DNA from: Candidatus Doudnabacteria bacterium RIFCSPHIGHO2_12_FULL_48_16
GTDB taxonomy: Bacteria > Patescibacteriota > Doudnabacteria > UBA920 > O2-02-FULL-48-8
Direction of reading: 5' to 3'
NCBI GenBank assembly: GCA_001780035.1
Contig: MFEY01000007.1
Location: forward strand, 6,212 to 70,211
Length of the DNA stretch: 64,000 nt
A model generated the notes under the pieces. The model made no database searches. It was given only the letters and a program-made list of their open reading frames with translations, and was not told the origin of the DNA. This document shows, one piece after another, positions 14,955 through 42,924 of this stretch. Each line of letters starts with the position of its first letter. Position 1 is the stretch's first letter. The translations under genes were made by a program, and so were the position numbers.

Positions 14955-15061
14955 CCCGTTAGAAATAATGGTTAGTTAATAAATATAATTTTTTATAATC
15001 AATCCGTTGAGTGTATTCTTTGCGATAAATTCAACTATGTAAAATTTCTAACGGGATTCAT
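14955..15061 (-). mobile_element. IR-A miniature inverted-repeat element, copy 1, inserted at the gpmI stop / response-regulator start junction
   Basis: Minus-strand orientation: ATGAAT-CCCGTTAGAAAT…(75 nt)…ATTTCTAACGGG-ATGAAA. The arms are a perfect 12-14 bp inverted repeat and the loop contains TTAACTAAC. If the element and one ATGAA are removed, gpmI and the regulator overlap as …GGGATATGAAAAAA, an ATGA start-stop overlap. Confidence 0.55.
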
Positions 15062-16701
15062 ATCCCTGCTTGTTTGGTCAGTTGCGGCAACAAACTGATG
15101 CCGGTCATTTCAGCGGGTTTTTCTATCCCCATCAATTCTAGCATGGTCGGCGCTACGTCCGAAAGTACCCCCACGGGGACAATCCCCGCTAGCGACACAA
15201 TTCCCCCTTCTTTGGGGTGCTTGCGCTTGAGTTGGCCCATAACCGCGACTAAGGGCACCGGGTTGGTTGAATGCTCTTTATCGATCCCGCCAGATCGAAT
15301 ATCCAGCAACTCCTCGACATTGCCGTGATCCGCGGTGATCAGCAGCGCAATGTTTTGGTTTAGGCATTCGGCCGACAGTTTTTGTAGGCATTCGTCGATT
15401 ACCTTGATCGCCTTGATCGATGCCTGCATGTTTCCCGTATGCCCAACCATATCAGGGTTGGCGTAATTAATCAGGTAAAACGTATAATTTTCTTTCAGCT
15501 TCCCAATCAACTCGTCCGTTGTCTTGTATGCGGACATTTCCGGCACATCGACATAATTTTGATAATTGGACGCGGGCGAAGTGATGATTTTTCGCTCCTC
15601 GCCGGGAAAAGGATTGATCACTCCGCCGTTGAAAAACACCGAAACATGCGCGTATTTTTCTGACTCGGCAATATGAAACTGCCGCAAGCCCTTCTTGCTG
15701 ATTAACTCGGCCATGCCGTTGGTAATTTCCTGGGGCGGGAAAGCCATTTTGACATTCAGGTCGTGAGCGAATTCGGTCATGGTGACAAATAACAGGTTTT
15801 TAAAAACCTTGGCCGGCTGGGTAAATTTATTGAAATTATTCTCCGCAAACGCGCGGGTGATCTGCAGGGCGCGATCCGGCCGGAAATTAAAATGGATTAC
15901 GGCATCATTGTCGGAAACCAGCGCCGGTTTGCCCAGCCTCGACTCGCCGTCGAGGCGAGGCGGGCCATTTTCCTGCAAAATCACATTCGGCGGCACCATT
16001 TCATCAAAAATATGCTGGGCATAACTATCCTCGATCGCCGCCTGGGCCGAACCCACCTGCTTGCCTTCGCCAAAGACCATGGCACGGTAAGTTTGCTCGG
16101 TCAAATTCCAATGCTCAGCCCGATCCATGGAATAAAATCGGCCGGTCACGGTGGCAATTTTGCCGACATCAAAATTCCGCATTTTCTTGCTCAGTTTATC
16201 CAATGTTTCCAGCGCAATTTGCGGCGGCGTATCGCGGCCGTCCAAAAACATATGAATATAGACGTTTTGGATTTTTTGTTCGGCCGCCAAGCCCAATAGC
16301 GCATAAAGATGCTCGTCATAACTGTGCACGCCGCCCGGACTGACCAGCCCGACCAGATGCAGATTGGAGTTGTTCTTCTTGACATGCTCGCAAGCCTGCA
16401 GGAATGCCGGGTTCCTAAAAAAACTCCGGTCCTCGATGGATAATGTAATCCGCGATAAATCCTGGCCAATAATTCGGCCCGCGCCTAGATTCAAATGCCC
16501 GACTTCGGAATTGCCCATTTCACCCCAGGGCAGGCCCACCGACGGTCCCGAAGCCTGCAAGGTGGTGGCGGGATAATTATCGATCAGGTAATTGATGTGT
16601 GTCGGCTGCGCCATAACAATGGCATTGCCTTGCGATCCGGTGGCAATACCAAACCCGTCGAGGACCACTAAGACTAATTTTTTATAAGGTTGGATGGTCA
16701 T
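15058..16701 (-). CDS. gpmI: 2,3-bisphosphoglycerate-independent phosphoglycerate mutase
   Basis: The 547-aa product is collinear with iPGM (…VVLDGFG…, …SEVGHLNLGAGR…, …ADHGN…). Confidence 0.9.
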   Translation of the reverse strand: MTIQPYKKLVLVVLDGFGIATGSQGNAIVMAQPTHINYLIDNYPATTLQASGPSVGLPWGEMGNSEVGHLNLGAGRIIGQDLSRITLSIEDRSFFRNPAFLQACEHVKKNNSNLHLVGLVSPGGVHSYDEHLYALLGLAAEQKIQNVYIHMFLDGRDTPPQIALETLDKLSKKMRNFDVGKIATVTGRFYSMDRAEHWNLTEQTYRAMVFGEGKQVGSAQAAIEDSYAQHIFDEMVPPNVILQENGPPRLDGESRLGKPALVSDNDAVIHFNFRPDRALQITRAFAENNFNKFTQPAKVFKNLLFVTMTEFAHDLNVKMAFPPQEITNGMAELISKKGLRQFHIAESEKYAHVSVFFNGGVINPFPGEERKIITSPASNYQNYVDVPEMSAYKTTDELIGKLKENYTFYLINYANPDMVGHTGNMQASIKAIKVIDECLQKLSAECLNQNIALLITADHGNVEELLDIRSGGIDKEHSTNPVPLVAVMGQLKRKHPKEGGIVSLAGIVPVGVLSDVAPTMLELMGIEKPAEMTGISLLPQLTKQAGI

Positions 16702-16705
16702 AAAA

Positions 16706-17947
16706 TCACTTCCCTTCCAATGCCTTAATTGCCGGTAATTCTTTGCCGGCTAAAAATTCCAGCATGGCGCCGCCGCCGGTGGAAACATGATCCACGAACT
16801 GCGAGACTTTGGCCAGGTCAAACACTTCCACCGTTTCCCCGCCGCCGATCACTCCGAACGCCTTGCCTTTTGACCGGCTGGCGAACACTTGCGCCAAAGA
16901 CTTGCTGCCAAAAGCAAATTTCGGATTTTCGAACAAGCCAAACGGCCCGTTCCAAACCAAGGTTTGGGCCTGCTTGATCAGGCCGGAAAATTTGCGCACG
17001 CTTTCCGGTCCAATGTCCAGAATCTGCTCGGCTTTTTTTACACCATCCACTTTGACTAAGCTAGCTGTGCCGGCCGGGTTTGGGGCCGTAACCAAATCCA
17101 CGGGTAAAACAATTTTGGTTTTGTAGCTCCGCAGCAATTGCCTGGCCAGCGGAACATCGGAAACTTTTGACCCGCCAATTTCATAACCGTGCGCGGCCAA
17201 AAAGGCATTCGCCACGGCCCCGCCGACAATGATCTGTGAGGCGTGCTGGGCCAGATTGTGAATTGTTTCAATTTTATCATCAATTTTTGCTCCGCCGACC
17301 ATAAACACAAACGGCTGGGCCGGGTTGCTGATGATTTTCTGCAGTGATCTAATCTCTTTGATGAAATTCACACCACCATAGGCCGGCAGCTTACGAGCCA
17401 AGCCGAAGGTCGAAGCATCCTTGCGGTGGGCTACCGAGAACGCCTCATTGACGTAAACGTCGCCAAACCGGGCCAGAACCTCGACAAACTCTTCATCGTT
17501 TTGCTGTTCGCCCGGATAAAACCGCAAATTTTCCAGAAACAAAATGTTACCGGCCGAAATTTTTTTGCTCCAGCCGGAGTGGTCTTGCTTAGTGATGTCT
17601 TGGGCAAAAAAATACAGGTGGGGCACGGAATAGCTCGGTATCCGATCCACTATCTCGACGAATTTAAAATTCAACAGTTGGGCCAATTTTTCGGCCACCG
17701 GCCGCAGACTCTTTGATTTATCCCAACCCTCCGGCCGGCCCAGATGGGACATGACGATAATTTTGGCTTTTTGTCCGATCAAATACTTCAAGGTCGACAA
17801 AACGTCTTTGATTCTCGTATCATCTGCAACTATCAATTCTTCCCCCTCCCCCTTCCCCCCTCTACCCTCTTTTAATGGCACGTCAAACCCGGCGCGCAAA
17901 ATCACGCGCCGGCCAGTTACTTTGACACTTGTAATGCTTTTTATCAT
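16706..17947 (-). CDS. pgk: Phosphoglycerate kinase
   Basis: 413 aa with PGK motifs (…VIVMSHLGRP…, …FLENLRF…, …GGGA…). Confidence 0.9.
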   Translation of the reverse strand: MIKSITSVKVTGRRVILRAGFDVPLKEGRGGKGEGEELIVADDTRIKDVLSTLKYLIGQKAKIIVMSHLGRPEGWDKSKSLRPVAEKLAQLLNFKFVEIVDRIPSYSVPHLYFFAQDITKQDHSGWSKKISAGNILFLENLRFYPGEQQNDEEFVEVLARFGDVYVNEAFSVAHRKDASTFGLARKLPAYGGVNFIKEIRSLQKIISNPAQPFVFMVGGAKIDDKIETIHNLAQHASQIIVGGAVANAFLAAHGYEIGGSKVSDVPLARQLLRSYKTKIVLPVDLVTAPNPAGTASLVKVDGVKKAEQILDIGPESVRKFSGLIKQAQTLVWNGPFGLFENPKFAFGSKSLAQVFASRSKGKAFGVIGGGETVEVFDLAKVSQFVDHVSTGGGAMLEFLAGKELPAIKALEGK

Positions 17948-17971
17948 AAATCGTATAATCTCCTCGAAACC

Positions 17972-18085
17972 GTCTTTGCGAGCGGCCGCTTTATAATCTA
18001 TATAAACTTAGCGGCCGCGAAGCAATCTCTTTATTGGGGTAAGATTGCTTCGTCGTCCCGACAAGTCGGGACTCCTCGCAAAGAC
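17972..18085. repeat. IR-B element, copy a (GTCTTTGCGAG … CCTCGCAAAGAC)
   Basis: The terminal inverted repeats flank internal hairpins agcggccgc…gcggccgct, cgaagcaatct…agattgcttcg and gtcccgac-aa-gtcgggac. The element sits just upstream of the pgk start. Confidence 0.55.
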
Positions 18086-18099
18086 AGAAAAAATAATAT

Positions 18100-18279
18100 C
18101 TATCTTTTCTTCGTCTTCGCATCCCTGATCATCACTCCGCCCGGGACTTTCGTCAGCAGCAAATACTGACGTTCGCGCCAGCCAAACGACCGGATAAACT
18201 CTGCGGGAACAATCAGCGCCAGGGATTTTCCCGCGCCAACTCTGGTCAGTTTTCTTTTTGAATTGATCGGCCTTGCCAT
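18100..18279 (-). CDS. AbrB/MazE/SpoVT-family small DNA-binding protein (59 aa). It is not in the ORF track, which only lists ORFs of 60 aa or more
   Basis: MARPINSKRKLTRVGAGKSLALIVPAEFIRSFGWRERQYLLLTKVPGGVMIRDAKTKKR is a swapped-hairpin AbrB/MazE signature (…vG.S.a..iP.e…g…). A paralog lies at 22836-23009. Confidence 0.5.
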   Translation of the reverse strand: MARPINSKRKLTRVGAGKSLALIVPAEFIRSFGWRERQYLLLTKVPGGVMIRDAKTKKR

Positions 18280-18321
18280 ATTTAACTACTTACTTAAGTA
18301 AGTAGTTTAGTGCTGAGTTAC

Positions 18322-18927
18322 TTATTTCGTAAACTTGAAAGTGGACAGGATTTGATCCACCAAAGGAGATACTTTATTAACATAATCATTACTATCGCTT
18401 AAAACATCCGTAAAACTTAGAAAATAAGTTAGAGCAAATGCATTGTTGTTTTTTTCAAAGACAACAATTCTCATGACCCCTAATCCTGTATCGTAGACCA
18501 ATTCGAACGCATCTTCCTGCGCAAATACTATTTTCTGGTTAGATATTAATTTGAACCCTCTAGCCGCGTTGTAAACATTTAACCAATTATTTGCTACTGT
18601 CGATGCCGCTTTATTTTCATATACATACCAGACTGTACCCGAGGGTGCCTGACCTTGAACTTTAGGACCTGTTACCGATACTAAATTCTCATACCACAGC
18701 GAATCGCTCGCGTCGGACTTTGGAAGATGTCTGTCGATTAACTCCCAATTGCTTGGATACTTAAACTCAAACCCGTATTTGGTATTGGTATAAGTTTTCC
18801 AATTCACGGTTTCATTTGTTGTGACTGGAGCCTTAACAATTCTGGGATTCTGCCACAGGTAAATGCCACCGACCACAACGATGGCGGCCGCAGCGAGAAA
18901 TAGATAGCCTAAAATTTTATGCTTCAT
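18322..18927 (-). CDS. Membrane-anchored extracytoplasmic protein, member of the W-TY-N-KYGFEF-YP family, paralog 1
   Basis: N-terminal transmembrane segment, motif [20 protein letters not shown], and a C-terminus …ILSTFKFTK shared with 22033, 23093, 23907 and 45219. Confidence 0.5.
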   Translation of the reverse strand: MKHKILGYLFLAAAAIVVVGGIYLWQNPRIVKAPVTTNETVNWKTYTNTKYGFEFKYPSNWELIDRHLPKSDASDSLWYENLVSVTGPKVQGQAPSGTVWYVYENKAASTVANNWLNVYNAARGFKLISNQKIVFAQEDAFELVYDTGLGVMRIVVFEKNNNAFALTYFLSFTDVLSDSNDYVNKVSPLVDQILSTFKFTK

Positions 18928-19655
18928 TTTAATTCTTTAATTTTCTTAATTAAATTTTCTGGATACCAAACTGGTCCGATTATAACTGGTGCTATTGAAT
19001 TATAATCTGTTGTTCGCAGAACCACATTACCACTTTTGGAATCAGATAATTTAGCCAAAGATCCTAACACAGCGGTCGCTGGTATCGTCCGGCCCCGTGT
19101 TGAAATCATCTGCCAATAAGAAAACTTGGTTGGATAAATTTCAGTAATATTTTTGATATAAATCGTGCGGAGATTATACATTAATGGCAGCAATCCTTTG
19201 ATCTCAACTCTGTCGCTATAAAGGATAAATTTTCTGGAAAATGCGCTAAAACCTAGAAAAATAATAATAATTAATATAACCAATCCGACTATTAATAACC
19301 TTATATCCAGTTGATCAAATGCTTTAAGTGCTCCATACAGAATAAATACACTCATAAAGCCAAAATATCCTAATACCACATAAAATCCGGATCTATCTTG
19401 CTTAATTTCAATCCCGTTCGTAATGAACTCATATTTATCAGCTGTCTTATTTTGTTCTTGAGGTATATTGCCCAGGCCAGAAAAGAAAAGAATCGCGCCC
19501 AACACCATCATAAAAATGCCGACAATTTGCAAATTCTCGTTTGGTTTTAATCCCCAAACCAATACTGCTCCGGCAATGGCGAAAATTAAACCAAATAAAA
19601 TTAACGTTTTAGATGAGATAAATTCTGACTTCTGTTCCATATTACTCTTTCCCAA
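18924..19655 (-). CDS. Polytopic membrane protein with a possible bacterial PH-like (YdbT/DUF304-like) segment
   Basis: 243 aa with several transmembrane helices. Its stop overlaps the start of 18322-18927 by 4 nt. Confidence 0.35.
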   Translation of the reverse strand: MGKSNMEQKSEFISSKTLILFGLIFAIAGAVLVWGLKPNENLQIVGIFMMVLGAILFFSGLGNIPQEQNKTADKYEFITNGIEIKQDRSGFYVVLGYFGFMSVFILYGALKAFDQLDIRLLIVGLVILIIIIFLGFSAFSRKFILYSDRVEIKGLLPLMYNLRTIYIKNITEIYPTKFSYWQMISTRGRTIPATAVLGSLAKLSDSKSGNVVLRTTDYNSIAPVIIGPVWYPENLIKKIKELK

Positions 19656-20733
19656 TTAAGATTGCCTGCTCCACAAAGCGGTTGGCATAGCCGAATTCAT
19701 TGTCATACCAGGCCACAACCTTAACCATATCGCCGTCGACCACTTGGGTCAGGGACAAATCAACTACCGCGGAGTGCGGGTTACCAATGATATCAGAAGA
19801 AACGATTGGATCGGTCGTAACTTCCAGAATGTTTTTCCACATCGGATGCTTGGCCATCTCAATAAAAGCGTTGTTCACTTCCTCAACCGTGGTTCTTTTG
19901 TTCAACAGCGCGGTAAAATCTGAAAGAGAACCGCAGGCCACCGGCACCCGGAATGCAATTCCGCCAAACTCACCCTTGAGCTCCGGGATAACTTCAGTCG
20001 CCGCGATCGAGGCGCCGGTCGAGGTCGGTGTGATGTTGAAACCGGCGGCGCGCATTCGGCGCAGATCTTTATGCAATGGCGGCGGCGGCCCATCCACCAA
20101 ATTCTGCTCCACGGTCAGGGCATGAATCGTCGACATCATCATTTTTTTGACGCCAAACTTGCTATGCAGAATGGCTGCCACCGGCGTGATACAGTTGGTG
20201 GTGCAAGAGGCGTTGGAAATCACATTCTGGCCTTTGTATTGATCGCTGTTGACCCCCAAAATAAACGTCGGGGTAATTCCATCATCTTTCGCCGGGGCGG
20301 AAATAATGACTTTTTTGGCGCCGGCTTTGAGGTGAGCGGAGGCCAGCTCGGTGGTAATAAATCGGCCAGTCGATTCCAGCACCACGTCCACATTTAAATC
20401 CCGCCAGGGCAGCATAGCCGGGTCTTTTTCGGCGAAAATCGGAGTTTTCCGGCCATCGACGGTCAGTGTCCCGGCCGAAGAAATCAACGGGTTGGCTTTT
20501 TCTTTTTTGGTATCAAAACTCACCGGCTTGTCGTAAACGCCGTAGACCGAATCGTATTTTAAAAGGTTGGCCAGCACATCCGGTTCGGTCAGATCGTTGA
20601 TGGCCACCACCTGCAGTTCGGGTTTGGTCAGGGCAATTTTAAAGGCCTGCCTCCCGATCCGGCCAAATCCGTTGATCGCTATGCGAATTTTGCTCGCCCC
20701 GTTAGATTTTACAGAATTTTTATCGTTAATCAT
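19642..20733 (-). CDS. gap: Glyceraldehyde-3-phosphate dehydrogenase, type I
   Basis: INGFGRIGR Rossmann motif and the ASCTTNC active site. The N-terminal 14 aa (MINDKNSVKSNGAS) are encoded by the IR-A2 element, so the ancestral start is probably near KIRIAINGFGRIGR. Confidence 0.9.
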   Translation of the reverse strand: MINDKNSVKSNGASKIRIAINGFGRIGRQAFKIALTKPELQVVAINDLTEPDVLANLLKYDSVYGVYDKPVSFDTKKEKANPLISSAGTLTVDGRKTPIFAEKDPAMLPWRDLNVDVVLESTGRFITTELASAHLKAGAKKVIISAPAKDDGITPTFILGVNSDQYKGQNVISNASCTTNCITPVAAILHSKFGVKKMMMSTIHALTVEQNLVDGPPPPLHKDLRRMRAAGFNITPTSTGASIAATEVIPELKGEFGGIAFRVPVACGSLSDFTALLNKRTTVEEVNNAFIEMAKHPMWKNILEVTTDPIVSSDIIGNPHSAVVDLSLTQVVDGDMVKVVAWYDNEFGYANRFVEQAILIGKE

Positions 20734-20782
20734 AAGTTATCATCCCCGTATTGATTTTTCTAAAAAATCTAACGGGGTGAAT
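20697..20782 (-). mobile_element. IR-A2 element, copy 2, at the 5-prime end of gap
   Basis: Arms CCCCGTTAGATTTT / AAAATCTAACGGGG. The interior is homologous to the 42555-42637 copy, including an ATG that is in frame with gap. Confidence 0.5.
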
Positions 20783-20905
20783 TTATTTTACAATAGTTAA
20801 AAGAAACGCTGCCACAAACAGAGCCCACGCCATAAAAATGATATGTTCGGTGGGGTCCGAGAAATGGAAGTATTCATGCAATTTTTTGGTCTGCTTTTTT
20901 GCCAT
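20783..20905 (-). CDS. Possible 40-aa small membrane peptide
   Basis: MAKKQTKKLHEYFHFSDPTEHIIFMAWALFVAAFLLTIVK ends in a single hydrophobic helix. It sits between fba and gap. This is a weak call. Confidence 0.2.
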   Translation of the reverse strand: MAKKQTKKLHEYFHFSDPTEHIIFMAWALFVAAFLLTIVK

Positions 20906-20938
20906 TTGAATTATTCCTGGTGAATTAATTATTATTTT

Positions 20939-22027: not shown

Positions 22028-22032
22028 ATTAA

Positions 22033-23009: not shown

Positions 23010-23092
23010 TTGCTTTTGCTACGTAGCATGCTACGTAATTATATTATTTTTTAGGGAGTTTTCTCGAAGCCAATTAGCAAGCTATCTAACAT

Positions 23093-25196: not shown

Positions 25197-25208
25197 AGAA
25201 TTTTTTCT

Positions 25209-25317
25209 GTCTTTGCGAGGAGGAACGTCTGACGTTCCGACGAAACAATCTCTGGAAGAGATCGCCGCGCGACTGCCGAGAATAATACTTATTGATAAAG
25301 CAGTCGCTCGCGAAGAC
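25209..25317. repeat. IR-B element, copy b
   Basis: gtctttgcgaggagg … cgctcgcgaagac, with internal hairpins ggaacgtctgacgttcc and caatctctggaagagatcg. Confidence 0.5.
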
Positions 25318-25359
25318 GTAATTTATTGATTAATTTTTCTTGTGACAAATATTTTCATG

Positions 25360-26611: not shown

Positions 26612-26684
26612 TTTTTTGTTTCGGAAAGTTACTTTTACCTGTTTATTATAATGAATTGTTAAAAAATATGCAAATTAAAAAACC

Positions 26685-26781
26685 GTCTTTGCGAGGAGGC
26701 CAATTTTTGAGCCTTAACTTAGTGGCTGATGAAGCAATCTCTTTTCTCGTGATGAGATTGCTTCGTTTCGCTCGCAAAGAC
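26685..26781. repeat. IR-B element, copy c
   Basis: gtctttgcgaggagg…gaagcaatctcttttctcgtgatgagattgcttcg…cgctcgcaaagac. Confidence 0.55.
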
Positions 26782-26789
26782 AATCTTTT

Positions 26790-29083: not shown

Positions 29084-29293
29084 TTATAGTGGCAACGGAC
29101 AGCTTTGATTGAGGCAATTTTGCTTCTGAACCCTTTGCTCGGCTTTCCATTTCAAATAATCGTTCATCGTTTTTCTGGAAGTATAATTATTTGGCCAATA
29201 TCCTTCCGTAACCTTAACAATCGGGATTTGGAACCAACCATACAAGCCCACGGCCGTCAGAATCAATATCGTGCTAATAACTTTATTAGTCAT
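29084..29293 (-). CDS. Small membrane protein
   Basis: 69 aa with one transmembrane helix (VISTILILTAVGLYGWF). Confidence 0.3.
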   Translation of the reverse strand: MTNKVISTILILTAVGLYGWFQIPIVKVTEGYWPNNYTSRKTMNDYLKWKAEQRVQKQNCLNQSCPLPL

Positions 29294-29309
29294 ATTTATG
29301 TTTCTCGAC

Positions 29310-29439
29310 GTCTTTGCGAGGAACCGCTTTATTATTTTAGGTTTAACCTTGGCGGCGACGAAGCAATCTCTTTTAAGCGGCGAGATTGCTTCGCGGCGGC
29401 TTAAACTAATTCTTAATAAGTTCCGCCGCTCGCAAAGAC
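29310..29439. repeat. IR-B element, copy d
   Basis: gtctttgcgagg…cgaagcaatctcttttaagcggcgagattgcttcg…cgctcgcaaagac. Confidence 0.55.
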
Positions 29440-35637: not shown

Positions 35638-35646
35638 AGATTAGGT

Positions 35647-35748
35647 TGTCTTTCGGGACTGCCGCTTAAGCTAAAGGTCCGACCTTTTGCTTAAACTGGC
35701 GCTTTGTATCAAGGTCGGACCTTGAACCAAGCGGTCGCTCGCAAAGAC
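35647..35748. repeat. IR-B element, copy e (variant left arm)
   Basis: gtctttcggga…aaggtccgaccttt…aaggtcggaccttg…cgctcgcaaagac. Confidence 0.45.
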
Positions 35749-35749
35749 A

Positions 35750-36328
35750 TTACTTAATTCCCAATTTTTTCAATATCTCCTGGTGCACAGCTTCAATCGG
35801 CTGATCGCCGTTAATGTGGATCAAAAAGCCCTTCTGTTCGTAATAATCCTTAACCGGAGCGGTTTTTAACATGTATTGATCGAATCTTTTTTCAACTACA
35901 GCCGGATCGTCATCCGCGCGGCCGGCAACTGAGCCGCGTTTGAGTATCCGGTCTTTTAATTTTTTCTTATCGACTTCCAAAAATAAAGCTTGAAGATTGC
36001 GAATCTCATACCTTTCCATTATGTTTTCGAGCAGTTGGGCTTGTTCAATCGTTCTGGGGTATCCATCCAAGATGACACCGGGTTTGTCGACCAGAGTTTC
36101 AAATTTTTTGGTAAAAATTTCCGTAATGATATCAATCGGCAAAATAAACCCCTGATCGATAATTGATTTTATCTTATGGCCAAAATCATCTTTATGAGTT
36201 GCATATTCGCGCGACAAGGCTCCGGTGCTGAAATATTCATAACCTGATTTTTTCGCTAAAAGTTCGGTCTGCGTTCCTTTGCCCGAACCGGGCGCGCCCA
36301 TGAAGACAATGATATTTTCGAGTTTCAC
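35750..36328 (-). CDS. adk: Adenylate kinase
   Basis: VFMGAPGSGKGTQ P-loop, …GFILDGYPRT… and the LID-region motifs. It uses a GTG start immediately after the IR-A arm. Confidence 0.9.
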   Translation of the reverse strand: MKLENIIVFMGAPGSGKGTQTELLAKKSGYEYFSTGALSREYATHKDDFGHKIKSIIDQGFILPIDIITEIFTKKFETLVDKPGVILDGYPRTIEQAQLLENIMERYEIRNLQALFLEVDKKKLKDRILKRGSVAGRADDDPAVVEKRFDQYMLKTAPVKDYYEQKGFLIHINGDQPIEAVHQEILKKLGIK

Positions 36329-36434
36329 CCCGTTAGAAATAATGATTAGTTAGTAACTGATTTAATTTATAATCTGTGCAATAAATACTCGTTGATCCTG
36401 TAGAATACTATGTGCAATTTCTAACAGGATTCAT
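36329..36434 (-). mobile_element. IR-A element, copy 2, upstream of adk
   Basis: Minus orientation: ATGAAT-CCTGTTAGAAAT…CTAACTAATCATT-ATTTCTAACGGG-GTGAAA. Confidence 0.55.
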
Positions 36435-36516
36435 GTAATTATTATAGCCAATTTTAAGCAAAATTTAAAGGGTCAACCGCTGTTGGCCCTTTAAATAATA
36501 CTGATTTAAATCAGTA

Positions 36517-37812
36517 TTAAAAATCCTCGTAGTCCCGCATGACCATTTGGGCCTGAACCTGTTTCATAACTTCGATCACCACCGCCACTACGATCAGAAG
36601 GCTGGTGCCGCCCAGAGCCAGACTCTGCGCACCGGTAAAGTATTGCATGATGTTTGGCAAAACCGCGATCAGGCCCAAAAAGATGGCGCCGACCAAAGTG
36701 ATCCGGTTTAAAACCTTATAGAGGAACTCGGCGGTTTGCCGGCCTGGCCGTAGGCCCGGAATGAATCCGCCTTGCTTCTGGATATTTTCCGAAATTTCAT
36801 CGGGATTGAATACGATGGCGGTATAGAAATAAGTAAAAGCCACAACCAAGATAAAGTAAATGATCCCCTGGTAAGTCTGGTTTTGGAAAAAAGTGTTTAG
36901 AGCCGTTGCAGCGTGAGCCAGCCAAACGGTTTTGGCGCTGGAAAAAAAGTTCGCGATCAAGCCCGGGAACAACAGGATGGAAATGGCAAAAATGATCGGA
37001 ATGACGCCGGCCTGGTTGACGCGCAGCGGCAGATGGGTGTTGACCCCGCCATACATTTTGTTGCCGCGAATCCGCTTGGCATACGACACCGGGATATTGC
37101 GCTGGGCTTCGGTAATCATAACCACTCCGGCAATAACCACCAATGCCAACGCCAGATACGACAATCCGGTGACCAAAGATTGCGGGCTGATTCCGCCCGA
37201 GGTGTTCAAGCTCAAGAATGATTGCTGGGCCACAACTGGAATGCGGGCAACGATCCCGGCAAAGATAATTAAGGAGATGCCGTTGCCAATTTTGAATTCC
37301 GAAATCATTTCGCCCAGCCAGAGCAACACCATGGTACCGGCCGTAACCGACAATAAGGTAATAAACCACTGAAACGGGCTGAAGTTCGAGGCAATGTTGG
37401 AACCGGCCTGCCGCGACAACAGCATAATCGTGCCGTAAGCCTGGATTGCAGCCAGCGGCACAGTCAAATATCGCATATATTGGTTGATTTTGGCCCGGCC
37501 CGCTTCGCCGCCTTCCTTGGACAGTTCCCCGAGCTTGGGGATGATCACGGTCAGCAACTGGATGATAATCGAAGCCGTGATGTAAGGCCCAACGCCGAGC
37601 ATAGCCACGGAAAAAGTGCTCAAGCCGCCGCCGGAAAAGATATCGAACAAGCCCAACAGCTGGTTGCTGTTGATCAATTGTCTCAAATCAGTGATGCCTA
37701 TTCCCGGAATCGGGATATGGGACAGGATTCTGGTGGCCACCAACAAACCCGCCACAATCAGAATTCGATTGCGAAGTTCTTTGACCTTCCAGATTTGAGA
37801 AATTCTCGACAT
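36517..37812 (-). CDS. secY: Preprotein translocase subunit SecY
   Basis: 431 aa with ten transmembrane segments and SecY-conserved loops. Confidence 0.9.
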   Translation of the reverse strand: MSRISQIWKVKELRNRILIVAGLLVATRILSHIPIPGIGITDLRQLINSNQLLGLFDIFSGGGLSTFSVAMLGVGPYITASIIIQLLTVIIPKLGELSKEGGEAGRAKINQYMRYLTVPLAAIQAYGTIMLLSRQAGSNIASNFSPFQWFITLLSVTAGTMVLLWLGEMISEFKIGNGISLIIFAGIVARIPVVAQQSFLSLNTSGGISPQSLVTGLSYLALALVVIAGVVMITEAQRNIPVSYAKRIRGNKMYGGVNTHLPLRVNQAGVIPIIFAISILLFPGLIANFFSSAKTVWLAHAATALNTFFQNQTYQGIIYFILVVAFTYFYTAIVFNPDEISENIQKQGGFIPGLRPGRQTAEFLYKVLNRITLVGAIFLGLIAVLPNIMQYFTGAQSLALGGTSLLIVVAVVIEVMKQVQAQMVMRDYEDF

Positions 37813-37816
37813 GATT

Positions 37817-38257
37817 TTAGCTGATCTTGCCGCCGGCCTTTTCGATTTTATCCTTCGCCGCGGCGGACACTAATACTTTTTCAAATGACAGGGACTTTTT
37901 AAGTTCGCCCTGATTGAGGATTTTGATCTTACCGTTGGCATCTTTAACCAAGCCCTTGTTGAACAAGGTTTTAGGATTAACCATTTCGCCGGCCTGAAAT
38001 TTCTGTTCCAGCAAATCCAGACTGATCGGTATGGCTTTGGGAATTCGGCTGGTAAAGCCGCGGCGCTTGGGAATCTGCCGGTGCAACGGCATGCGGCCGC
38101 CTTCAAAACCGACCGGAATTGAGGCGCCCGAACGGGCCAGCTGGCCCTTGGCGCCGCGGCCCGAAAAGGTGCCGTGGCCGGAGCCAACACCACGTCCGAC
38201 AGTTTTGCGGCGCTTGGTTGATCCCTTGTATGGCCTGAGTTCAGAGAGTTTCAGCAT
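37817..38257 (-). CDS. rplO: 50S ribosomal protein L15
   Basis: MLKLSELRPYKGSTKRRKTVGRGVGSGHGTFSGRG. It directly follows rpsE with no L30 gene between them. Confidence 0.9.
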   Translation of the reverse strand: MLKLSELRPYKGSTKRRKTVGRGVGSGHGTFSGRGAKGQLARSGASIPVGFEGGRMPLHRQIPKRRGFTSRIPKAIPISLDLLEQKFQAGEMVNPKTLFNKGLVKDANGKIKILNQGELKKSLSFEKVLVSAAAKDKIEKAGGKIS

Positions 38258-38258
38258 A

Positions 38259-38762
38259 TTATTTCTTAAAATTCAGCATGGTGTCTTTGGACTTCATTTT
38301 AGACAAAGCCAGATAGGTCGCCATGACATTATTTACCTTGTTGGAAGAACCGATCATTTTCGACAGCACATTCTTGACGCCGACCAAGTCGAGCACCTGG
38401 CGGATCGAGCCGCCGGCGATAATTCCCGTGCCCGGCCGGGCCGGTTTGAGAAAGACCACCGAGGATTTATACTTCAGCTTCATTTCGTGCGGAATGGTAT
38501 CGTTGACCAGGTTGATGCTCACCAGAGTTTTCTTGGCCGCGTTAACCGCCTTGTTCACAGCTTCCGAAACATCGGCGCCTTTGCGCAGACCGATGCCCAC
38601 CCGCCCTTTTTTGTCCCCGATCACCACTAGGGCGCGGAAACGCATGCGCTTGCCGCCAGCGACCACGCGCGTCACGCGCTTGATCTCGACGATCTTTTGC
38701 TCAAATTCTCTGGGGCCCTGTTCGCCTTGGCGGCCGCGACCGCGGCCTCTGTTAAATGCCAT
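38259..38762 (-). CDS. rpsE: 30S ribosomal protein S5
   Basis: …RVTRVVAGGKRMRFRALVVIGDKKGRVGIG…. Confidence 0.9.
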   Translation of the reverse strand: MAFNRGRGRGRQGEQGPREFEQKIVEIKRVTRVVAGGKRMRFRALVVIGDKKGRVGIGLRKGADVSEAVNKAVNAAKKTLVSINLVNDTIPHEMKLKYKSSVVFLKPARPGTGIIAGGSIRQVLDLVGVKNVLSKMIGSSNKVNNVMATYLALSKMKSKDTMLNFKK

Positions 38763-38781
38763 AAAGATTCTTTCTTCTCTT

Positions 38782-38945
38782 TCTTCTCCCCTTGCGGGAG
38801 AAGATGTCAGCCTTAGAGATTTTATTAAAGCCGGCTGACAGATGAGGGGTATCTAAGGGTTAGTAGGCTCCTAAATCACCCTCACCTGTCACTCAACGAA
38901 GTTGAGTGACATCCTCTCCCGTCAAGGGAGAGGATAAAACTGAAA
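38782..38945. repeat. SR-C structured repeat, copy 1, upstream of rpsE
   Basis: Modules: TCTTCTCCC-cttgc-GGGAGAAGA, tgtcagc…gctgacagatg, gaggggtatctaag…, aaatcaccctcacctgtc…, ATCCTCTCCC-gtcaa-GGGAGAGGAT. Confidence 0.6.
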
Positions 38946-38952
38946 GTTACGT

Positions 38953-39294
38953 TTAAAACTCCAATCCCGCAGCGCGAGCGCTGTCAGCTAATTCTTTTAC
39001 CCGGCCGTGATACTGGTATCCGCCGCGGTCAAACACAACTTTTTTAATCCCGGCCGCCTGGGCTTTCTGGGCGGCGAGCTTGCCGACCTCAACCGAGGCC
39101 TGCTTCTTGCTGTTTTTACCCTTAAGTTCCGAACTGGCGGCGCTGGCCATGGTCTTACCGTTTTCATCATCGATGAATTGCACGTAAATCTGGCTTAACG
39201 ATCGGAAAACATTCATGCGCGGAACTTGCGCCGTTCCTTTGACTTTCGAGCGAATCCGGTTATGTCTAAATTTTCTCTGGGTTCTTTTGTTCAT
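38953..39294 (-). CDS. rplR: 50S ribosomal protein L18
   Basis: …RPRLSVFRSLKHIYAQ…-type L18. 113 aa. Confidence 0.9.
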
Positions 39295-39314
39295 AGAATT
39301 ATAATTTCTAGATT

Positions 39315-39869
39315 CTATTTTCCGCCTCCGACGGCCTTAACGACTTTGCCCGCTTTACGCCGAATAACTTCATCGGAATATTTTATGCCTTTGCCCTTGT
39401 AAGGCTCCGGTTCCCGCTGGGAGCGCACAACAGCCGCAAACTGGCCGACCAACTGGCGGTCAATGCCGGCTACGGTCATAACGTTCTTTTCCACTTTGAC
39501 GTCCAGACCATCCGGGATTTCCATTTCAATCGGGTGCGAATAACCAAGATTCATGACCAATTTTTTTCCGGTCACCGCGGCTTTGTAACCGACCCCGTTG
39601 ATTTCCAAGGTTTTGCTAAACCCGGCGGTCACACCAGAGACCATATTGTTAATCAGCGCGCGCGATAATCCCCACAACGCCCGTTCGCTCTTTACCTTCT
39701 CGTTTTTTACGCTGACGACCAGATCCTGGCCATTCTGAGCAACAGTAACTTTGGGATGAACATGCAGCGTTAATTCGCCCTTGGGTCCTTTGACCTTCAG
39801 AGTCTGATCCTGAATCTCGGCGGTCACACCGGATGGCAGGGTTACTGGTTTTTTACCGATTCTGCTCAT
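39315..39869 (-). CDS. rplF: 50S ribosomal protein L6
   Basis: [33 protein letters not shown]…. Confidence 0.9.
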
Positions 39870-39887
39870 TTGATTCTTTCTTCTTGT

Positions 39888-40036
39888 TCTTCTCCCCTTG
39901 CGGGAGAAGATGTCAGCGTTATTTGGGTTATTATTAGTCGCTGACAGATGAGGGGTATCTAAGCTTACTTAGCTCTTAAATCACCCTCACCTGTCCCGAC
40001 TTTGTCGGGACATCCTCTCCCGTTGAGGGAGAGGAT
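39888..40036. repeat. SR-C structured repeat, copy 2, upstream of rplF
   Basis: About 96% identical over roughly 150 nt to copy 3 (40469-40617). Same module order, with an inner hairpin gtcccgac-tttgtc-gggac. Confidence 0.65.
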
Positions 40037-40052
40037 TAAGCTGAAAATTACA

Positions 40053-40451
40053 TTACCAAATTTGGCAGACAATTTCGCCGCCGACTTTGGCCTTGCGGGC
40101 TTCCTTGTCCGTCATTAATCCTTTCGAAGTCGAAACTACCGTGGTGCCCATGCTGCCCATGACACGCGGCAAATTTTCCCGGGAAGCATAAATACGCTGT
40201 CCCGGCTTGCTGACCCGTTTGATGCCGGAAATCGTCGGTTGGCCGGAGGCATCGTATTTGAGCTGCAGCATCAAATTTTTGAAGCCGCCGTCTTCCGACA
40301 CTTCCACTTTCTTAATCCAGCCTTCTGTTTCCAGAACTTTGGCCAGGCTGAGCTTGAAATTGGAGTGCGGCAAAGAAACTTCGCTCTTGCGGGCGAGCAA
40401 TGCATTGCGAATGCGGGTTAGCATATCTGAAATTGTGTCGTTCATCGTCAT
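40053..40451 (-). CDS. rpsH: 30S ribosomal protein S8
   Basis: MTMNDTISDMLTRIRNALLARK…. Confidence 0.9.
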   Translation of the reverse strand: MTMNDTISDMLTRIRNALLARKSEVSLPHSNFKLSLAKVLETEGWIKKVEVSEDGGFKNLMLQLKYDASGQPTISGIKRVSKPGQRIYASRENLPRVMGSMGTTVVSTSKGLMTDKEARKAKVGGEIVCQIW

Positions 40452-40468
40452 AAGGTTTTTTCTTATTT

Positions 40469-40617
40469 TCTTCTCCCCTTGCGGGAGAAGATGTCAGCGT
40501 TATTTGGGTTATTATTAGTCGCTGACAGATGAGGGGTATCTAAGCTTACTTAGCTCTTAAATCACCCTCACCTGTCCCGACTTTGTCGGGACATCCTCTC
40601 CCGTTGAGGGAGAGGAT
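40469..40617. repeat. SR-C structured repeat, copy 3, upstream of rpsH
   Basis: Near-identical to copy 2. It ends …caaggggagaagaaaataagaaaaaacctt just before the ATG. Confidence 0.65.
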
Positions 40618-40633
40618 TAAGCTGAAAATTACA

Positions 40634-40828
40634 TTACCAGGAAGATTTAACTATACCGGGGATTTCACCATTGGAAGCCAGTTCTCGGAAACAAATGCGG
40701 CAGATATCAAAATCGCGCATATAACCATGCTTGCGGCCACAGCGCCAGCAGCGGCGCACGACCCGGGTCGAATATTTCGCCTGGGTGCGGGATTTAAGAG
40801 ATTTTAAGTATTGAGCCTTGGTTGCCAT
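40634..40828 (-). CDS. rpsZ: 30S ribosomal protein S14, type Z (zinc-binding)
   Basis: 64 aa with CWRCGRKHGYMRDFDICRICFRE, a CxxC…CxxC zinc motif. Confidence 0.9.
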   Translation of the reverse strand: MATKAQYLKSLKSRTQAKYSTRVVRRCWRCGRKHGYMRDFDICRICFRELASNGEIPGIVKSSW

Positions 40829-40833
40829 AGTTG

Positions 40834-41370
40834 TTATTTGGAAAACGGGAACCCTAATGATTTAAGAAGCGCTAAAGCCTGTTTGTCATCGTCAGTCGAA
40901 GTTTGGATGTTAACTTCCAGGCCGAAAGTGTATTCAAAGTGTTCCCGCGTGGTCTCCGGAAATACAATCTGCTCCCGCAGACCAATGTTGTAGTTACCAT
41001 GGCCGTCAAATTTCTTGGGATCCAGGCCGCGGAAATCGCGAACGCGAGGAAGAGCAACCTTCACCAGTTTTTCCAAAAAATCATACATTCGATTGCCGCG
41101 CATGGTGACGACCAGACCAACTACCTGCCCCTCGCGGATTTTAAACCCGGCGATGGATTTCTTGGCCAGGGTTTTGACCGGAGTTTGGCCGGTAATGCGC
41201 TTGACGTCTTCCACAATCGCCTCGAGCATTTTGGCATCTTTCAATGTTTTACCGACGCCGACATTGACCACAACTTTCTGGATTTTCGGTACAGCCATAA
41301 CATTGCCCAAATGCAAATCCTGCATCAGGCTCTTGGTTACTTTTTCTTTGTATAAAGTCTTGAAATTCAT
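40834..41370 (-). CDS. rplE: 50S ribosomal protein L5
   Basis: MNFKTLYKEKVTKSLMQDLHLGNVMAVPKIQKVVVNVGVG…. Confidence 0.9.
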   Translation of the reverse strand: MNFKTLYKEKVTKSLMQDLHLGNVMAVPKIQKVVVNVGVGKTLKDAKMLEAIVEDVKRITGQTPVKTLAKKSIAGFKIREGQVVGLVVTMRGNRMYDFLEKLVKVALPRVRDFRGLDPKKFDGHGNYNIGLREQIVFPETTREHFEYTFGLEVNIQTSTDDDKQALALLKSLGFPFSK

Positions 41371-41476
41371 CCCGTTAGAAATAATAATTAGTTAATCGAC
41401 AATCTTTGTTATAGCCAGCCCGTTGAATATTATGCTCACTATTGGTTAAATATGCAAAATTTCTAACGGGATTCAT
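41371..41476 (-). mobile_element. IR-A element, copy 3, between rplX and rplE
   Basis: TAA-TGAAT-CCCGTTAGAAAT…TTAACTAATTATT-ATTTCTAACGGG-ATGAAT: a perfect 6-bp direct repeat ATGAAT flanks a 14-bp inverted repeat. Removing the element and one repeat gives TAATGAAT, the common TAATG stop-start overlap. Confidence 0.6.
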
Positions 41477-41781
41477 TAGATTACCTTTCCACACTTTTTA
41501 CATTTGCGAAAATTGCCGCGATCGGAAAGTTCGCGTCCGACCCGGGTCGGCTTGCCGCAGAGGGGGCAAATTAACTGAGTTTTGGAAGCATCGATCGCCC
41601 CAGGAAGTTCCAAGCGCTGTCCTTTTTCGCCCTGCCGTTTCGGCCGAGAAAATCGGACCCGGATGTGCAGCCCTTCGACGACCAGCTTGCCGGTTTTGGG
41701 AAACACGTCCAAAACCTTGCCGGTCTTACCCCGTTCTTTGCCTGCCAAAATTTTAACTGTATCGCCTTTCTTTATTCTCAT
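41476..41781 (-). CDS. rplX: 50S ribosomal protein L24
   Basis: MRIKKGDTVKILAGKERGKTGKVL… is the KOW motif. Confidence 0.9.
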   Translation of the reverse strand: MRIKKGDTVKILAGKERGKTGKVLDVFPKTGKLVVEGLHIRVRFSRPKRQGEKGQRLELPGAIDASKTQLICPLCGKPTRVGRELSDRGNFRKCKKCGKVI

Positions 41782-41794
41782 ATAATTCTTAATT

Positions 41795-41880
41795 TACGTC
41801 TACGAACTTACGAAATTTTTACGAAAATACGAAGTGAGCTAACCCTTTTCGTATGTTCGTATTCTGTTCGTAATTTCGTA
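41795..41880. repeat. Long imperfect hairpin built from iterated TACGAA (x4) and TTCGTA (x4) units, between rplN and rplX
   Basis: ctacgaacttacgaaatttttacgaaaatacgaag-tgagctaaccctt-ttcgtatgttcgtattctgttcgtaatttcgtag. The same TTCGTAAT unit is the recJ heptamer repeat. Confidence 0.55.
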
Positions 41881-41884
41881 GCCA

Positions 41885-42256
41885 TTACACTACTTCTTCG
41901 GCTAATGAAATAATTTTAGTGAACCCCAGATCGCGCAACTCCCTCGGCATCGGGCCAAAAATACGGGTGCCCCGCGGTTCCGGATCATCTTTGTTAACCA
42001 AAACTGCGGCGTTGTCATCAAATCTGATGTAAGATCCGTCAGAGCGGCGCACTTCCTTGCGGGTGCGGACGATCACGGCGTAAACCTTATCGCCCTTCTT
42101 GACTTGGCCTTTCGGACTGGCGATTTTGACGGAAGCGGAGATAACATCACCGATCGTCGCGAAACGGCGCTTGTTTTTCCCGTTCACGCTAAAAGCCGCG
42201 ATCTCGCGAGCGCCGGTATTATCTGCAACTTTTAAACGTGTTCTTAACTGTATCAT
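41885..42256 (-). CDS. rplN: 50S ribosomal protein L14
   Basis: [19 protein letters not shown]…. Confidence 0.9.
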
Positions 42257-42315
42257 AATTTATTAGGTTGTTGTCCGCCGGAGGCGGATCCGCCTTTGGC
42301 GGAAATCATAAAATA

Positions 42316-42588
42316 TTAAATCTTGCTGACAACTTTCCAATTAACGGTTTTACTGTAAGGCCGGGATTCTTCGATTATGACCTTATCGCCGATTTTCAAT
42401 CCTTCCAAATCGTTATGGGAAGGGTATTTCTTTGAAACCGTGTAGCGCTTGTGATACTTCGGGTGCACTTTCACGGAATCGACTTCCACGATGACCGTCT
42501 TGGTCATTTTGTCGGAAATAACCCTGCCGGTTAATTTTCTGTGAATCTTATTCACCCCGTTAGATTTTACTGAATTATTATCTGTCAT
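42316..42588 (-). CDS. rpsQ: 30S ribosomal protein S17, with about 10 extra N-terminal residues encoded by an IR-A2 element
   Basis: MTDNNSVKSNGVN-KIHRKLTGRVISDKMTKTVIV… The S17 core starts at KIHRKLTGRVISDK. An alternative GTG at 42553-42555 directly follows the inverted-repeat arm. Confidence 0.85.
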   Translation of the reverse strand: MTDNNSVKSNGVNKIHRKLTGRVISDKMTKTVIVEVDSVKVHPKYHKRYTVSKKYPSHNDLEGLKIGDKVIIEESRPYSKTVNWKVVSKI

Positions 42589-42637
42589 AATTTTCTGCTT
42601 ATCCCATTGATTTTTCTAAAAATCTAACGGGGTCAAT
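42555..42637 (-). mobile_element. IR-A2 element, copy 1, between rpmC and rpsQ
   Basis: Minus orientation: TAA-TATTGA-CCCCGTTAGATTTTT…TTATGACAGATAATAATTCAGT-AAAATCTAACGGGG-TGAAT. The interior is homologous to the gap copy. Confidence 0.55.
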
Positions 42638-42638
42638 A

Positions 42639-42821
42639 TTATTTGGAATTAATGAGAGTTAAAATGCGGGCAATGTCTTTCTTGATATTCTGGAGGGTGT
42701 GGCTGTTCTTAACTTCCTTGGAATGAATCTTGAAAGTCAGATCACGAACCTGTTCGCGCAGGCTCGCCAGCTGGCGGCCCAGTTCCTGTTCACCCATGGC
42801 TTGCAATTCTTTCATTTTCAT
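42639..42821 (-). CDS. rpmC: 50S ribosomal protein L29
   Basis: MKMKELQAMGEQELGRQLASLREQVRDLTFK…. Confidence 0.9.
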   Translation of the reverse strand: MKMKELQAMGEQELGRQLASLREQVRDLTFKIHSKEVKNSHTLQNIKKDIARILTLINSK

Positions 42822-42822
42822 C

Positions 42823-42924
42823 CCGTTAAAAATTAATAACTAAATTAATCATATCTGTGATCGATAATCCTGCTAATATACTTTGCCCATCAACGAACGT
42901 CTCAAAATTTCTAACGGGATTCAT
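42823..42924 (-). mobile_element. IR-A element, copy 4, between rplP and rpmC
   Basis: TAA-ttt-ATGAAT-CCCGTTAGAAAT…TTTAGTTATTAATT-TTTAACGGG-ATGAAA. Confidence 0.55.

Follow-up and report, generated by a model that had tools for sequence, protein, structure and literature searches.

A probable family of MITE-like inverted-repeat elements that insert at start codons and rebuild them in Patescibacteria

Introduction

How an insertion can settle between overlapping essential genes and leave both of them usable is the question raised by a stretch of 64,000 nucleotides from Candidatus Doudnabacteria bacterium RIFCSPHIGHO2_12_FULL_48_16 (contig MFEY01000007.1), referred to here as the window. An initial annotation had described four copies of an inverted-repeat element, IR-A, placed exactly at junctions between the stop of one gene and the start of the next. 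Comparison with related genomes reveals that IR-A and a shorter sister type, IR-B, are insertions with a 4-bp target-site duplication, that the cut falls after base 1 of the start codon, and that the terminal purine of the element rebuilds the codon. IR-A and IR-B are probably non-autonomous elements of 75-105 bp resembling miniature transposable elements with inverted repeats (MITEs), which form one large family with a target preference R^TRAA (the caret marks the cut) and are kept where expression is preserved. Like MITEs, they are short and without a transposase gene, have terminal inverted repeats, duplicate their target and occur in multiple copies with presence/absence differences.

Copies in the window and their neighbours

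All genes around the IR-A and IR-B copies are on the minus strand of the window. The four IR-A copies were found where the initial annotation had placed them, with copy 4 off by only 1 nt, and two copies of IR-B, absent from that annotation, are added here. The copies are given in gene orientation as follows.

A1 (IR-A, T/A-type), 14954-15056, minus strand: between gpmI and the response-regulator gene; arms 14955-14966 and 15044-15055; closing pair of 15056 (T) and 14954 (A, base 1 of the regulator ATG at 14952-14954); upstream TGAA copy 15057-15060, in which the gpmI stop TGA occupies 15058-15060 and which forms the old ATG together with 15061; downstream TGAA copy 14950-14953, now bases 2-5 of the response-regulator gene.
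A2 (IR-A), 36328-36429, minus strand: before adk; left-arm mismatch CCTG; TGAA copies 36430-36433 and 36324-36327; closing pair T.G, the terminal G making the adk start GTG (36326-36328).
A3 (IR-A), 41370-41471, minus strand: between rplX and rplE; arms perfect; TGAA copies 41472-41475 and 41366-41369; the rplE ATG begins with the terminal A (41370).
A4 (IR-A), 42821-42919, minus strand: between rplP and rpmC; one arm mismatched; TGAA copies 42920-42923 and 42817-42820; the rpmC ATG begins with the terminal A (42821).
B1 (IR-B, C/G-type, 81 nt), 20697-20777, minus strand: before gap; the codon after the arm is GCG.
B2 (IR-B, C/G-type, 78 nt), 42555-42632, minus strand: between rpmC and rpsQ; followed by GTGAAT.

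In gene orientation IR-A reads ATGAAT-CC(C/T)GTTAGAAAT...ATTT(C/T)TAACGGG-(A/G)TGAA and spans 97-101 nt from CCCG to CGGG; on the plus strand the arms extend over 14955-15055 (A1), 36329-36428 (A2), 41371-41470 (A3) and 42822-42918 (A4). IR-B is about 80 nt long with arms CCCCGTTAGATTTT/AAAATCTAACGGGG. The terminal repeats of IR-A had been described as perfect, which is the case for A1 and A3 (12 nt, or 14 bp with the T/A closing pair) and is not for A2 and A4, each with one arm mismatch. A relaxed pattern, CGTTAG-N55-85-CTAACG, was found four times in the window versus 0.05 expected, and none of 100 shuffles reached four, so a chance origin of the arms is excluded. The interior blocks reported as common to the IR-A copies (TTTACAT.., CAACGGG and TTAACTAA) are real and recur in 11 more copies of the subfamily from other assemblies. 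The predicted RNA fold of each copy is a single long terminal stem, with a minimum free energy of -24 to -27 kcal/mol for IR-A (z-scores -2.0 to -3.4) and of -29 to -30 kcal/mol for IR-B (z-scores -6.3 to -7.4).

The flanking genes gpmI, response regulator, adk, secY, rplX, rplE, rplP and rpmC were confirmed by NCBIfam, and the profile alignments begin at or near the ATG or GTG after each IR-A, which agrees with the proposal that this codon is the start of the next gene. The stop codons near the arms, earlier regarded as lying just before the right arm, are present, and two of them belong to the arms themselves: a TAG lies within the left arm and a TAA within the right arm, the latter 4 nt upstream of the new ATG.

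Empty sites in related genomes

Insertion is recognized by comparing filled with empty sites. The L5 protein of the window matches, at 100% identity, the L5 of Candidatus Doudnabacteria bacterium RIFCSPLOWO2_02_FULL_49_13 (GCA_001777785.1), and the relatives compared have L5 identities of 93, 89, 84 and 83% and a GpmI identity of 87%. Comparison loci or contigs from other genomes are labelled with L-numbers (L009, L120, L133 etc.). All six window junctions, four with IR-A and two with IR-B, are uninterrupted in related genomes, as listed below.

rplX/rplE (A3): GGTAATCTAATGAATTTCAAG in relatives, exactly the predicted TAATGAATTTC; empty in L120, L121, L122, L123, L124 and L125.
gpmI/response regulator (A1): ACTATGAAAAAAATT in L133, an ATGA overlap, by which the predicted uninterrupted junction ATGAAAAAA is recovered.
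rplP/rpmC (A4): TAATTTTATGAAAATGAAA, and TAATTTTATGAAAATGAAAGAA in L120; empty ATGAAAATG versus filled ATGAA-T[...]A-TGAA-AATG.
adk (A2): TATAATAAATGC-ATGAAATTGGAA in L122, with TATAAT-N6-ATGAAATTG.
rpmC/rpsQ (B2): AAATAATATGGACAAGATTCAC / AAATAATATGGACAAGATT in L120.
small open reading frame (ORF)/gap (B1): GATAAATGAGTAAGATT in L133; GATAAATGAGTAAGATTCGC, giving the protein MSKIRIAINGFG.

Each empty site holds one copy of the duplicated bases, and the earlier proposal of insertion with target-site duplication is thus supported at all six junctions. No arm sequence is found in 33 kb of syntenic DNA of the closest relative, and in four conspecific assemblies, obtained from separate samples, the A3 site is filled identically. 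A more distant member of the Doudnabacteria (L122) carries an IR-A at its galT/tpiA junction (19810-19915, ATGAAT[...]ATGAAAAAAATC, with one extra A in the right arm), and the tpiA start in the window (TTGAAAAAG, around 32025, minus strand) has no element. This reciprocal presence and absence among relatives indicates a mobile element rather than a vertically inherited leader. At B1 and at B2 the old ATG is degraded and reads ATT.

Two neighbouring features may be recorded here. The small ORF directly upstream of gap (window 20790-20925, minus strand; MAKKQTKKLHEYFHFSDPTEHIIFMAWALFVAAFLLTIVK) is conserved and resembles a membrane peptide; a relative has the same ORF, with its TAA abutting the gap ATG. 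In L120, the closest relative, two DNA methylase genes stand together with a DUF5655 gene and an HNH/MTaX1 gene (15046-19174) where adk would follow secY, and this island resembles a restriction-modification system.

Target duplication and the rebuilt start codon

One genome per species was scanned for CCCGTTAGAWWT-N50-80-AWWTCTAACGGG, which gave at least 119 loci with arms CCCGTTAGAAAT...ATTTCTAACGGG; the family counts below rest on the matches listed. Gene calls in these loci are simple ORF calls, and taxon labels are those of the records. When six bases on each side of the 119 listed copies were compared, the fractions matching by position were 0.45, 0.81, 0.73, 0.76, 0.85 and 0.39. The peak covers four positions, and the duplication is therefore 4 bp long. 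An exact 4-mer on both sides was found in 74 of the 119, most often TGAA (34 copies), TAAA (21) and TGGA (8), with TCAA, TGAG, TGGG, CGTG and others once or twice each.

The base beside CCCG is C or T and the base beside CGGG is G or A, and the two are complementary in 112 of the 119 listed copies (C-G in 69, T-A in 43). The outer bases thus covary as a closing pair and are part of the element. The consensus is Y-CCCGTTAGA(A/T)(A/T)T ... A(A/T)(A/T)TCTAACGGG-R, with terminal inverted repeats of 13 bp closed on the outside by T...A or C...G. The initial annotation was right to regard the flanks as a copied target site and too long in giving the copy as ATGAA: the duplication is TGAA, and the outer T and A/G are borne by the element.

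Insertion sites have the form R^T-R-A-A with a 4-bp duplication. At a gene, the cut falls after base 1 of the start codon, and the left copy retains the old ATG together with any overlapping upstream stop. The right TGAA copy is preceded by the terminal purine of the element, which gives a new ATG in the T/A-type (IR-A) or a GTG in the C/G-type (IR-B). A recurrent class of at least 11 copies reads ATGAAC[...]GTGAA, from which it follows that the G is supplied by the element; the GTG start of adk in the window is likewise due to an element-borne terminal G.

In L009 (1916-2019, Patescibacteria) and in L057 (5090-5189, Omnitrophota) elements also abut the 5' ends of tRNA genes, with the same geometry as at start codons. 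The duplicated flank in L057 is CGTG, bases 2-5 of the tRNA, and G1 is restored by the terminal G of the element.

Two types of element at gene starts

The two closing pairs go with two designs. Among copies with a long downstream frame, an in-frame ATG lies 8-12 codons before the element end in 22 of 34 C/G-type copies, compared with 2/34 and 0/34 in the control frames and 3/42 in the T/A-type. The T/A-type instead has a stop in frame with the regenerated ATG, 4-14 codons upstream of it. The internal ATG of the C/G-type is about 30 nt from the end in an AU-rich context such as ATTATG, in some copies preceded by GGAGG. Its frame reads the right arm as ATT TCT AAC GGG, which would give a tag of the form M-x(4-8)-(I/K)SNG-(V/A); predicted examples are MEKKNNKISNGV, MPPKQQISNGV and MSKKENISNGV.

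The non-initiating codon GCG follows the arm in five independent cases, including gap in the window. The orthologue of gap starts MSKIRIAING, and the sole in-frame start in the window is the in-element ATG at 20731-20733; with GCG after the arm, GAPDH must start there. The N-terminus predicted from this ATG is MINDKNSVKSNG-A-SKIRIAINGFG / MINDKNSVKSNGASKIRIAING, with the peptide MINDKNSVKSNGASK. In B2 the internal ATG at 42586-42588 (minus strand) is in frame with rpsQ and predicts MTDNNSVKSNG-V-NKIHRK..., with the S17 peptide MTDNNSVKSNGVNK. The initial annotation had proposed that such an element inserts without polarity or fusion. IR-A fits this description in that it restores a separate start; the sister C/G-type does not, since it fuses an N-terminal tag from its own ATG.

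Distribution and association with translation starts

About 70 of the loci listed are from Patescibacteria, including Saccharibacteria, Nomura-, Moran-, Kerfeld-, Jorgensen-, Kaiser-, Buchanan-, Campbell-, Nealson- and Falkowbacteria and Kazan. About 40 others are from Planctomycetota, Omnitrophota, Deltaproteobacteria/Thermodesulfobacteriota, KSB1, Nitrospirae, Stahlbacteria and metagenome-assembled genomes (MAGs) labelled Gammaproteobacteria. The elements are 75-105 bp long with stop-rich interiors that vary greatly in length and sequence; one 93-nt subfamily from deltaproteobacterial MAGs has two conserved internal hairpins. Several MAGs have two or three contigs with hits, and the window itself holds six copies in 64 kb. 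Viral contigs gave only three matches, on which ground a phage-borne repeat was rejected. A search of Rfam 15 gave no match to the elements, either at the gathering threshold over the whole window or at permissive thresholds with the elements and seven loci.

In 62 of 121 listed copies the arm is followed at once by an RTG that begins an ORF of 50 codons or more. The association with start codons, which had been put forward as a property of the element, is strong in Patescibacteria (52/71, 73%) and weak in other phyla (8/41, 20%). The commonest duplication is TGAA in Patescibacteria and TAAA in the other phyla; in the latter the genes on either side of a copy share one orientation, and the site is often a TAA stop or a TAAATG junction or close to one. 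For the IR-A subfamily, a metagenome scan with the right-end signature gave 13 loci, which with other loci make 16 distinct sites; all 16 are followed by an ATG and an ORF, in one orientation throughout. Being directed to start codons is thus a property of a lineage or subfamily, and target preference plus selection could suffice for it without true homing.

Some copies have further peculiarities. In a Saccharibacteria MAG (L066, 5519-5621) the usual interior between the arms CCCGTTAGATTT / AAATCTAACGGG is replaced by a complete tRNA-like gene (anticodon CAC) on the opposite strand; it may be a passenger or a chimera. The flank CTCGC / GCGAG recurs beside the arms on one or both sides (L009, L077, L082, L106 and window B1 at 20690-20697) and lengthens the palindrome in L009; the 4-bp duplication model does not account for it. 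The left flank ACTTGT recurs in five T/A-type copies.

Comparison with known systems

The Correia/NEMIS elements of Neisseria and the ERIC/IRU elements of enterobacteria are similar in being non-coding, about 100-150 bp long, multicopy and gene-adjacent, with target duplications and terminal repeats that form a hairpin in the mRNA. They affect expression through promoters and through processing by RNase III/E (PMC10969869). They differ in their unrelated sequence, TA duplication, 26-bp repeats and restriction to one genus or family each, whereas the present family spans many phyla. For none of them has a cut behind base 1 of a gene been described, with the start codon restored by the terminal base. 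The phrase 'start codon' is absent from a 2024 review of MITEs (PMC10969869). The initial annotation knew of no described element with such start-codon behaviour, and none turned up in the literature on the arms, the encoded peptides, the MITEs of the candidate phyla radiation (CPR) or MITEs in connection with start codons or coupling. Rickettsia palindromic elements (RPEs) and intragenic ERIC/BOX sequences add an element-encoded peptide in frame, as do the C/G-type copies (PMC10969869). RPEs, however, lie inside coding regions as internal segments, whereas C/G-type copies lie at the 5' boundary and bring their own initiation codon and an N-terminal tag of 8-12 residues.

The present family, with ends of the form (C/T)CCCGTTAGAAAT and a 4-bp T-R-A-A duplication, resembles IS1380 and piggyBac in its end sequence and duplication length only. 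IS1380 elements in ISfinder have ends starting 5'-CC and 4-5-bp duplications, and piggyBac has the 13-bp repeat CCCTAGAAAGATA and a 4-bp TTAA duplication; a relationship between the two has been discussed in the literature. The duplication described here is not the palindromic TTAA, however, and the likeness of the ends could be due to chance. A likeness of 'ATGAATCCC' to the outside end of IS10 was dismissed as coincidental, the ATGAA being flank here. Integron attC sites were also rejected. Their core sites are ordered 5'-RYYYAAC ... GTTRRRY-3', and the present motifs GTTAGA(T/A)/TCTAAC stand in the wrong order on both strands, 5'-GTTAGA...TCTAAC-3'.

Likeness also exists to structure-mediated translational coupling and to reinitiation at ATGA/TAATG overlaps (background in PMC12548453 and PMC6728339). 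The ancestral junctions are ATGA and TAATG overlaps, and the new start lies at the foot of the stem within reach of a terminating ribosome. The difference is that here the structure would arrive ready-made with a mobile element.

Proposed mechanism

In the AT-rich, gene-dense genomes of Patescibacteria, the commonest tolerated R^TRAA site would be a start codon before Lys or Asn (A^TGAA), and a DDE-type transposase acting in trans may mobilise the elements. In the predicted fold, a stem of about 15 bp ties up the A and U of the new AUG. Few window genes have a Shine-Dalgarno motif upstream, and no consistent one was found in the right end of T/A-type copies. With the start paired and few Shine-Dalgarno sites, a free 30S subunit is expected to find the T/A-type start poorly. 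The 5' arm begins 3 nt past the old junction. A ribosome ending at the upstream stop, or engaged on the short frame that the old ATG opens (MNPVRN...), would melt the 5' arm and so free the AU-rich 3' arm with the new AUG. Insertion would in this manner turn an ATGA or TAATG overlap into structure-mediated translational coupling. The old-ATG frame ends at the arm TAA in A3, where it is open for 33 codons, and in A4 (32 codons), and it reaches this TAA in 11 of 23 frame-compatible copies, A3 and A4 included.

The case of adk may be different. A promoter-like TTTAAA-17-TATAAT (36434-36469, minus strand), which is a consensus match only, has its -10 box ending 6 nt before the old adk ATG (36432-36434). 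In L122 (about 14390-14420) the adk start lies 6-7 nt after a TATAAT box, and at both loci a hairpin behind secY comes first. These matches suggest that the adk mRNA was leaderless before the insertion; a leaderless transcript would stand in for the upstream ribosome.

Evaluation of the alternatives

Several observations weigh against non-autonomous, MITE-like elements with a simple target preference. The autonomous partner (IS200/IS605-type or other) that the initial annotation had thought worth seeking was not found near the copies, the collection scans covering arm pairs up to 600 nt apart. Long-range arm pairs in the collected loci, with at most two mismatches or with matching 4-bp flanks, were only combinations of separate small elements, and all-against-all clustering of 979 ORFs from about 0.9 Mb around 119 copies gave housekeeping families only and no recurrent transposase-like cluster. 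The 12-nt arms are identical over very distant phyla, and such identity is out of the ordinary for a site bound by a transposase. The scan demanded perfect arms and the copies counted are those listed, so that the sample is biased to intact or young copies. In a crude null from the window, about 0.4-0.47 of non-coding ATGAA sites are at starts, and the 16 of 16 for IR-A exceeds what equal tolerance at such sites would give. Set against about 41-47%, a preferred target A^TGAA combined with sparing of coding DNA does not fully account for this, and extra selection or real targeting is needed. When copies were oriented by a partial copy of the right terminus (..ACGGG+R) located 10-30 nt after the left arm, duplications of the form T-R-N-A numbered 30 and the reverse 3. 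Symmetric DDE chemistry does not predict such a bias, which needs selection or a strand-specific mechanism. For the coupling step, the difficulty is that most old-ATG frames stop early (11 of 50 reach the arm stop), and a leader peptide through the whole element was rejected as a general feature for this reason.

A domesticated cis-regulatory RNA module, which spreads as DNA and is retained for the benefit of the host, is less likely. The stem and the old start would then adjust the output of ribosomal-protein and glycolytic genes, either as a device for translational coupling or attenuation or as a hairpin that stabilises the mRNA. The arms stay perfect while interiors fall to about 55-75% identity, and the older-looking B copies with decayed flanks keep both 14-nt arms intact, as such a module would require; intact arms are expected as well, however, if only masters with intact ends transpose. 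Constant orientation relative to the gene, the partly sequestered start codon and the over-representation of old-ATG frames open to the arm TAA (11/23) also favour it. Yet the closest relatives have none of the six copies at the same essential genes, occupied sites vary among species as those of a parasite do, and most copies in other phyla are away from starts. RNAalifold on the IR-A subfamily returned the terminal stem only, with invariant pairs and no covariation. A mobile outward promoter inside IR-A, which could be an alternative or an additional route to transcription of the downstream gene, is unlikely as the explanation. It would consist of a sigma-70-like TT(T/G)ACA after the 5' arm and a -10-like box 17-18 nt further on, and the mRNA would lack the 5' arm and leave the start free. 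Gene-strand matches exist in A1, A3 and A4 (TTTACA-17-AAGAAT, TTTGCA-18-CATAAT and TTAGCA-17-TATGAT), TT(T/G)ACA is kept across the subfamily with a perfect TTGACA in two copies, and promoters are documented in Correia and other bacterial MITEs (PMC10969869). These matches, however, reach only 9/12 in very AT-rich sequence (7 in the region versus 2.9 +/- 1.7 expected), the -10 candidates stand at differing aligned positions, and A2 has no match inside it. The consensus used is that of sigma-70 only, and Patescibacteria promoters, which are not characterised, may differ.

Mobilisation as a single strand, by an HUH/IS200-IS605 or REPIN/RAYT system inserting in one orientation 3' of a fixed tetranucleotide, would make the right 'duplicate' a part of the element. 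The 30 versus 3 bias against an asymmetric flank, the co-orientation with genes, the folding of the whole element as one hairpin and the near-constant flank of each subfamily (TGAA in IR-A, TAAA in the 93-nt deltaproteobacterial type) are in its favour. It is nevertheless very unlikely: rare flanks (TGGA, TCAA, TGAG, TGGG, CGTG, CATA and CTGA) match copy by copy, TGAA and TGGA copies exist within one genome, and flanks that vary and still match on both sides rule out a fixed element-borne end. Empty sites have one copy of the tetranucleotide, the inverted repeats are terminal and not subterminal, and no TnpA or RAYT gene is near the copies (979 ORFs around 119 copies). An IS200/IS605-derived PATE or a REPIN was accordingly rejected, given the varying and matching flanks, the true duplication and the terminal repeats. 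RNA splicing, or ribosome hopping from the first ATGAA to the second in the style of T4 gene 60 or mitochondrial byp, is hardly credible. Identical ATGAA sequences do flank a stable hairpin with stops just past the first, a superficial likeness to take-off and landing sites. The elements lie between reading frames, however, where the downstream ATG suffices as a start and is the normal one in orthologues. Removal is incompatible with C/G-type copies, which read through the arm from their own ATG, and where GCG follows the arm a landing codon that matches is missing. The interiors lack conservation, and Rfam holds no ribozyme or intron family that matches them.

The MITE-like reading may be carried further. 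More speculatively, this may be a lineage of transposons specialised for nucleotide 1 of functional RNAs. It would cut after base 1 of a start codon, or of a mature tRNA as at the two tRNA loci, restore that base with its terminal purine and carry restart modules: in the T/A-type the old start as a leader ORF that opens the stem, in the C/G-type the internal start with its ISNG tag. Occupancy would then reflect true homing or obligate co-adaptation with Shine-Dalgarno-poor, gene-dense genomes rather than survivorship alone, with the arms kept by a conserved recognition partner. This further reading is rather unlikely.

Other features of the window

The window contains other repeats and one riboswitch, given below.

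38763-38952, 39870-40052 and 40452-40633: an intergenic repeat unrelated to the elements, about 182 nt long and present three times among ribosomal-protein genes, TAATGTAATTTTCAGCTTAATCCTCTCCCTCAACGGGAGAGGATGTC...CTGACATCTTCTCCCGCAAGGGGAGAAGAA, with several internal hairpins.
About 17990-18300, 25197-25359, 26612-26789, 29151-29330 and 35638-35749: another intergenic repeat, in at least five copies, bounded by GTCTTTGCGAG ... CTCGCAAAGAC, with the inner hairpin GAAGCAATCTC/GAGATTGCTTC.
59401-59548, minus strand: FMN riboswitch (Rfam RF00050, 87.7 bits).

Significance

Three features are apparently undescribed for bacterial MITEs: a cut after base 1 of a gene with the start codon rebuilt by the end of the element, a sister type that brings its own start and a protein tag, and an occurrence over many uncultured phyla with invariant ends. 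Start calls by gene callers are liable to be wrong at such sites, and dozens of database proteins may have an element-derived M..ISNG tag or be annotated from a false GTG or GCG start. The invariant arms may serve as a marker for horizontal exchange among uncultured phyla that share habitats. Patescibacteria (CPR) have small, packed genomes that are thought to be poor in room for mobile DNA. The element nevertheless sits in the most conserved operon of the cell, among overlapping ribosomal-protein genes, and before glycolytic genes, without destroying either. If the interpretation given here is true, it would be a nearly harmless route for a transposon in genomes with almost no non-coding space.

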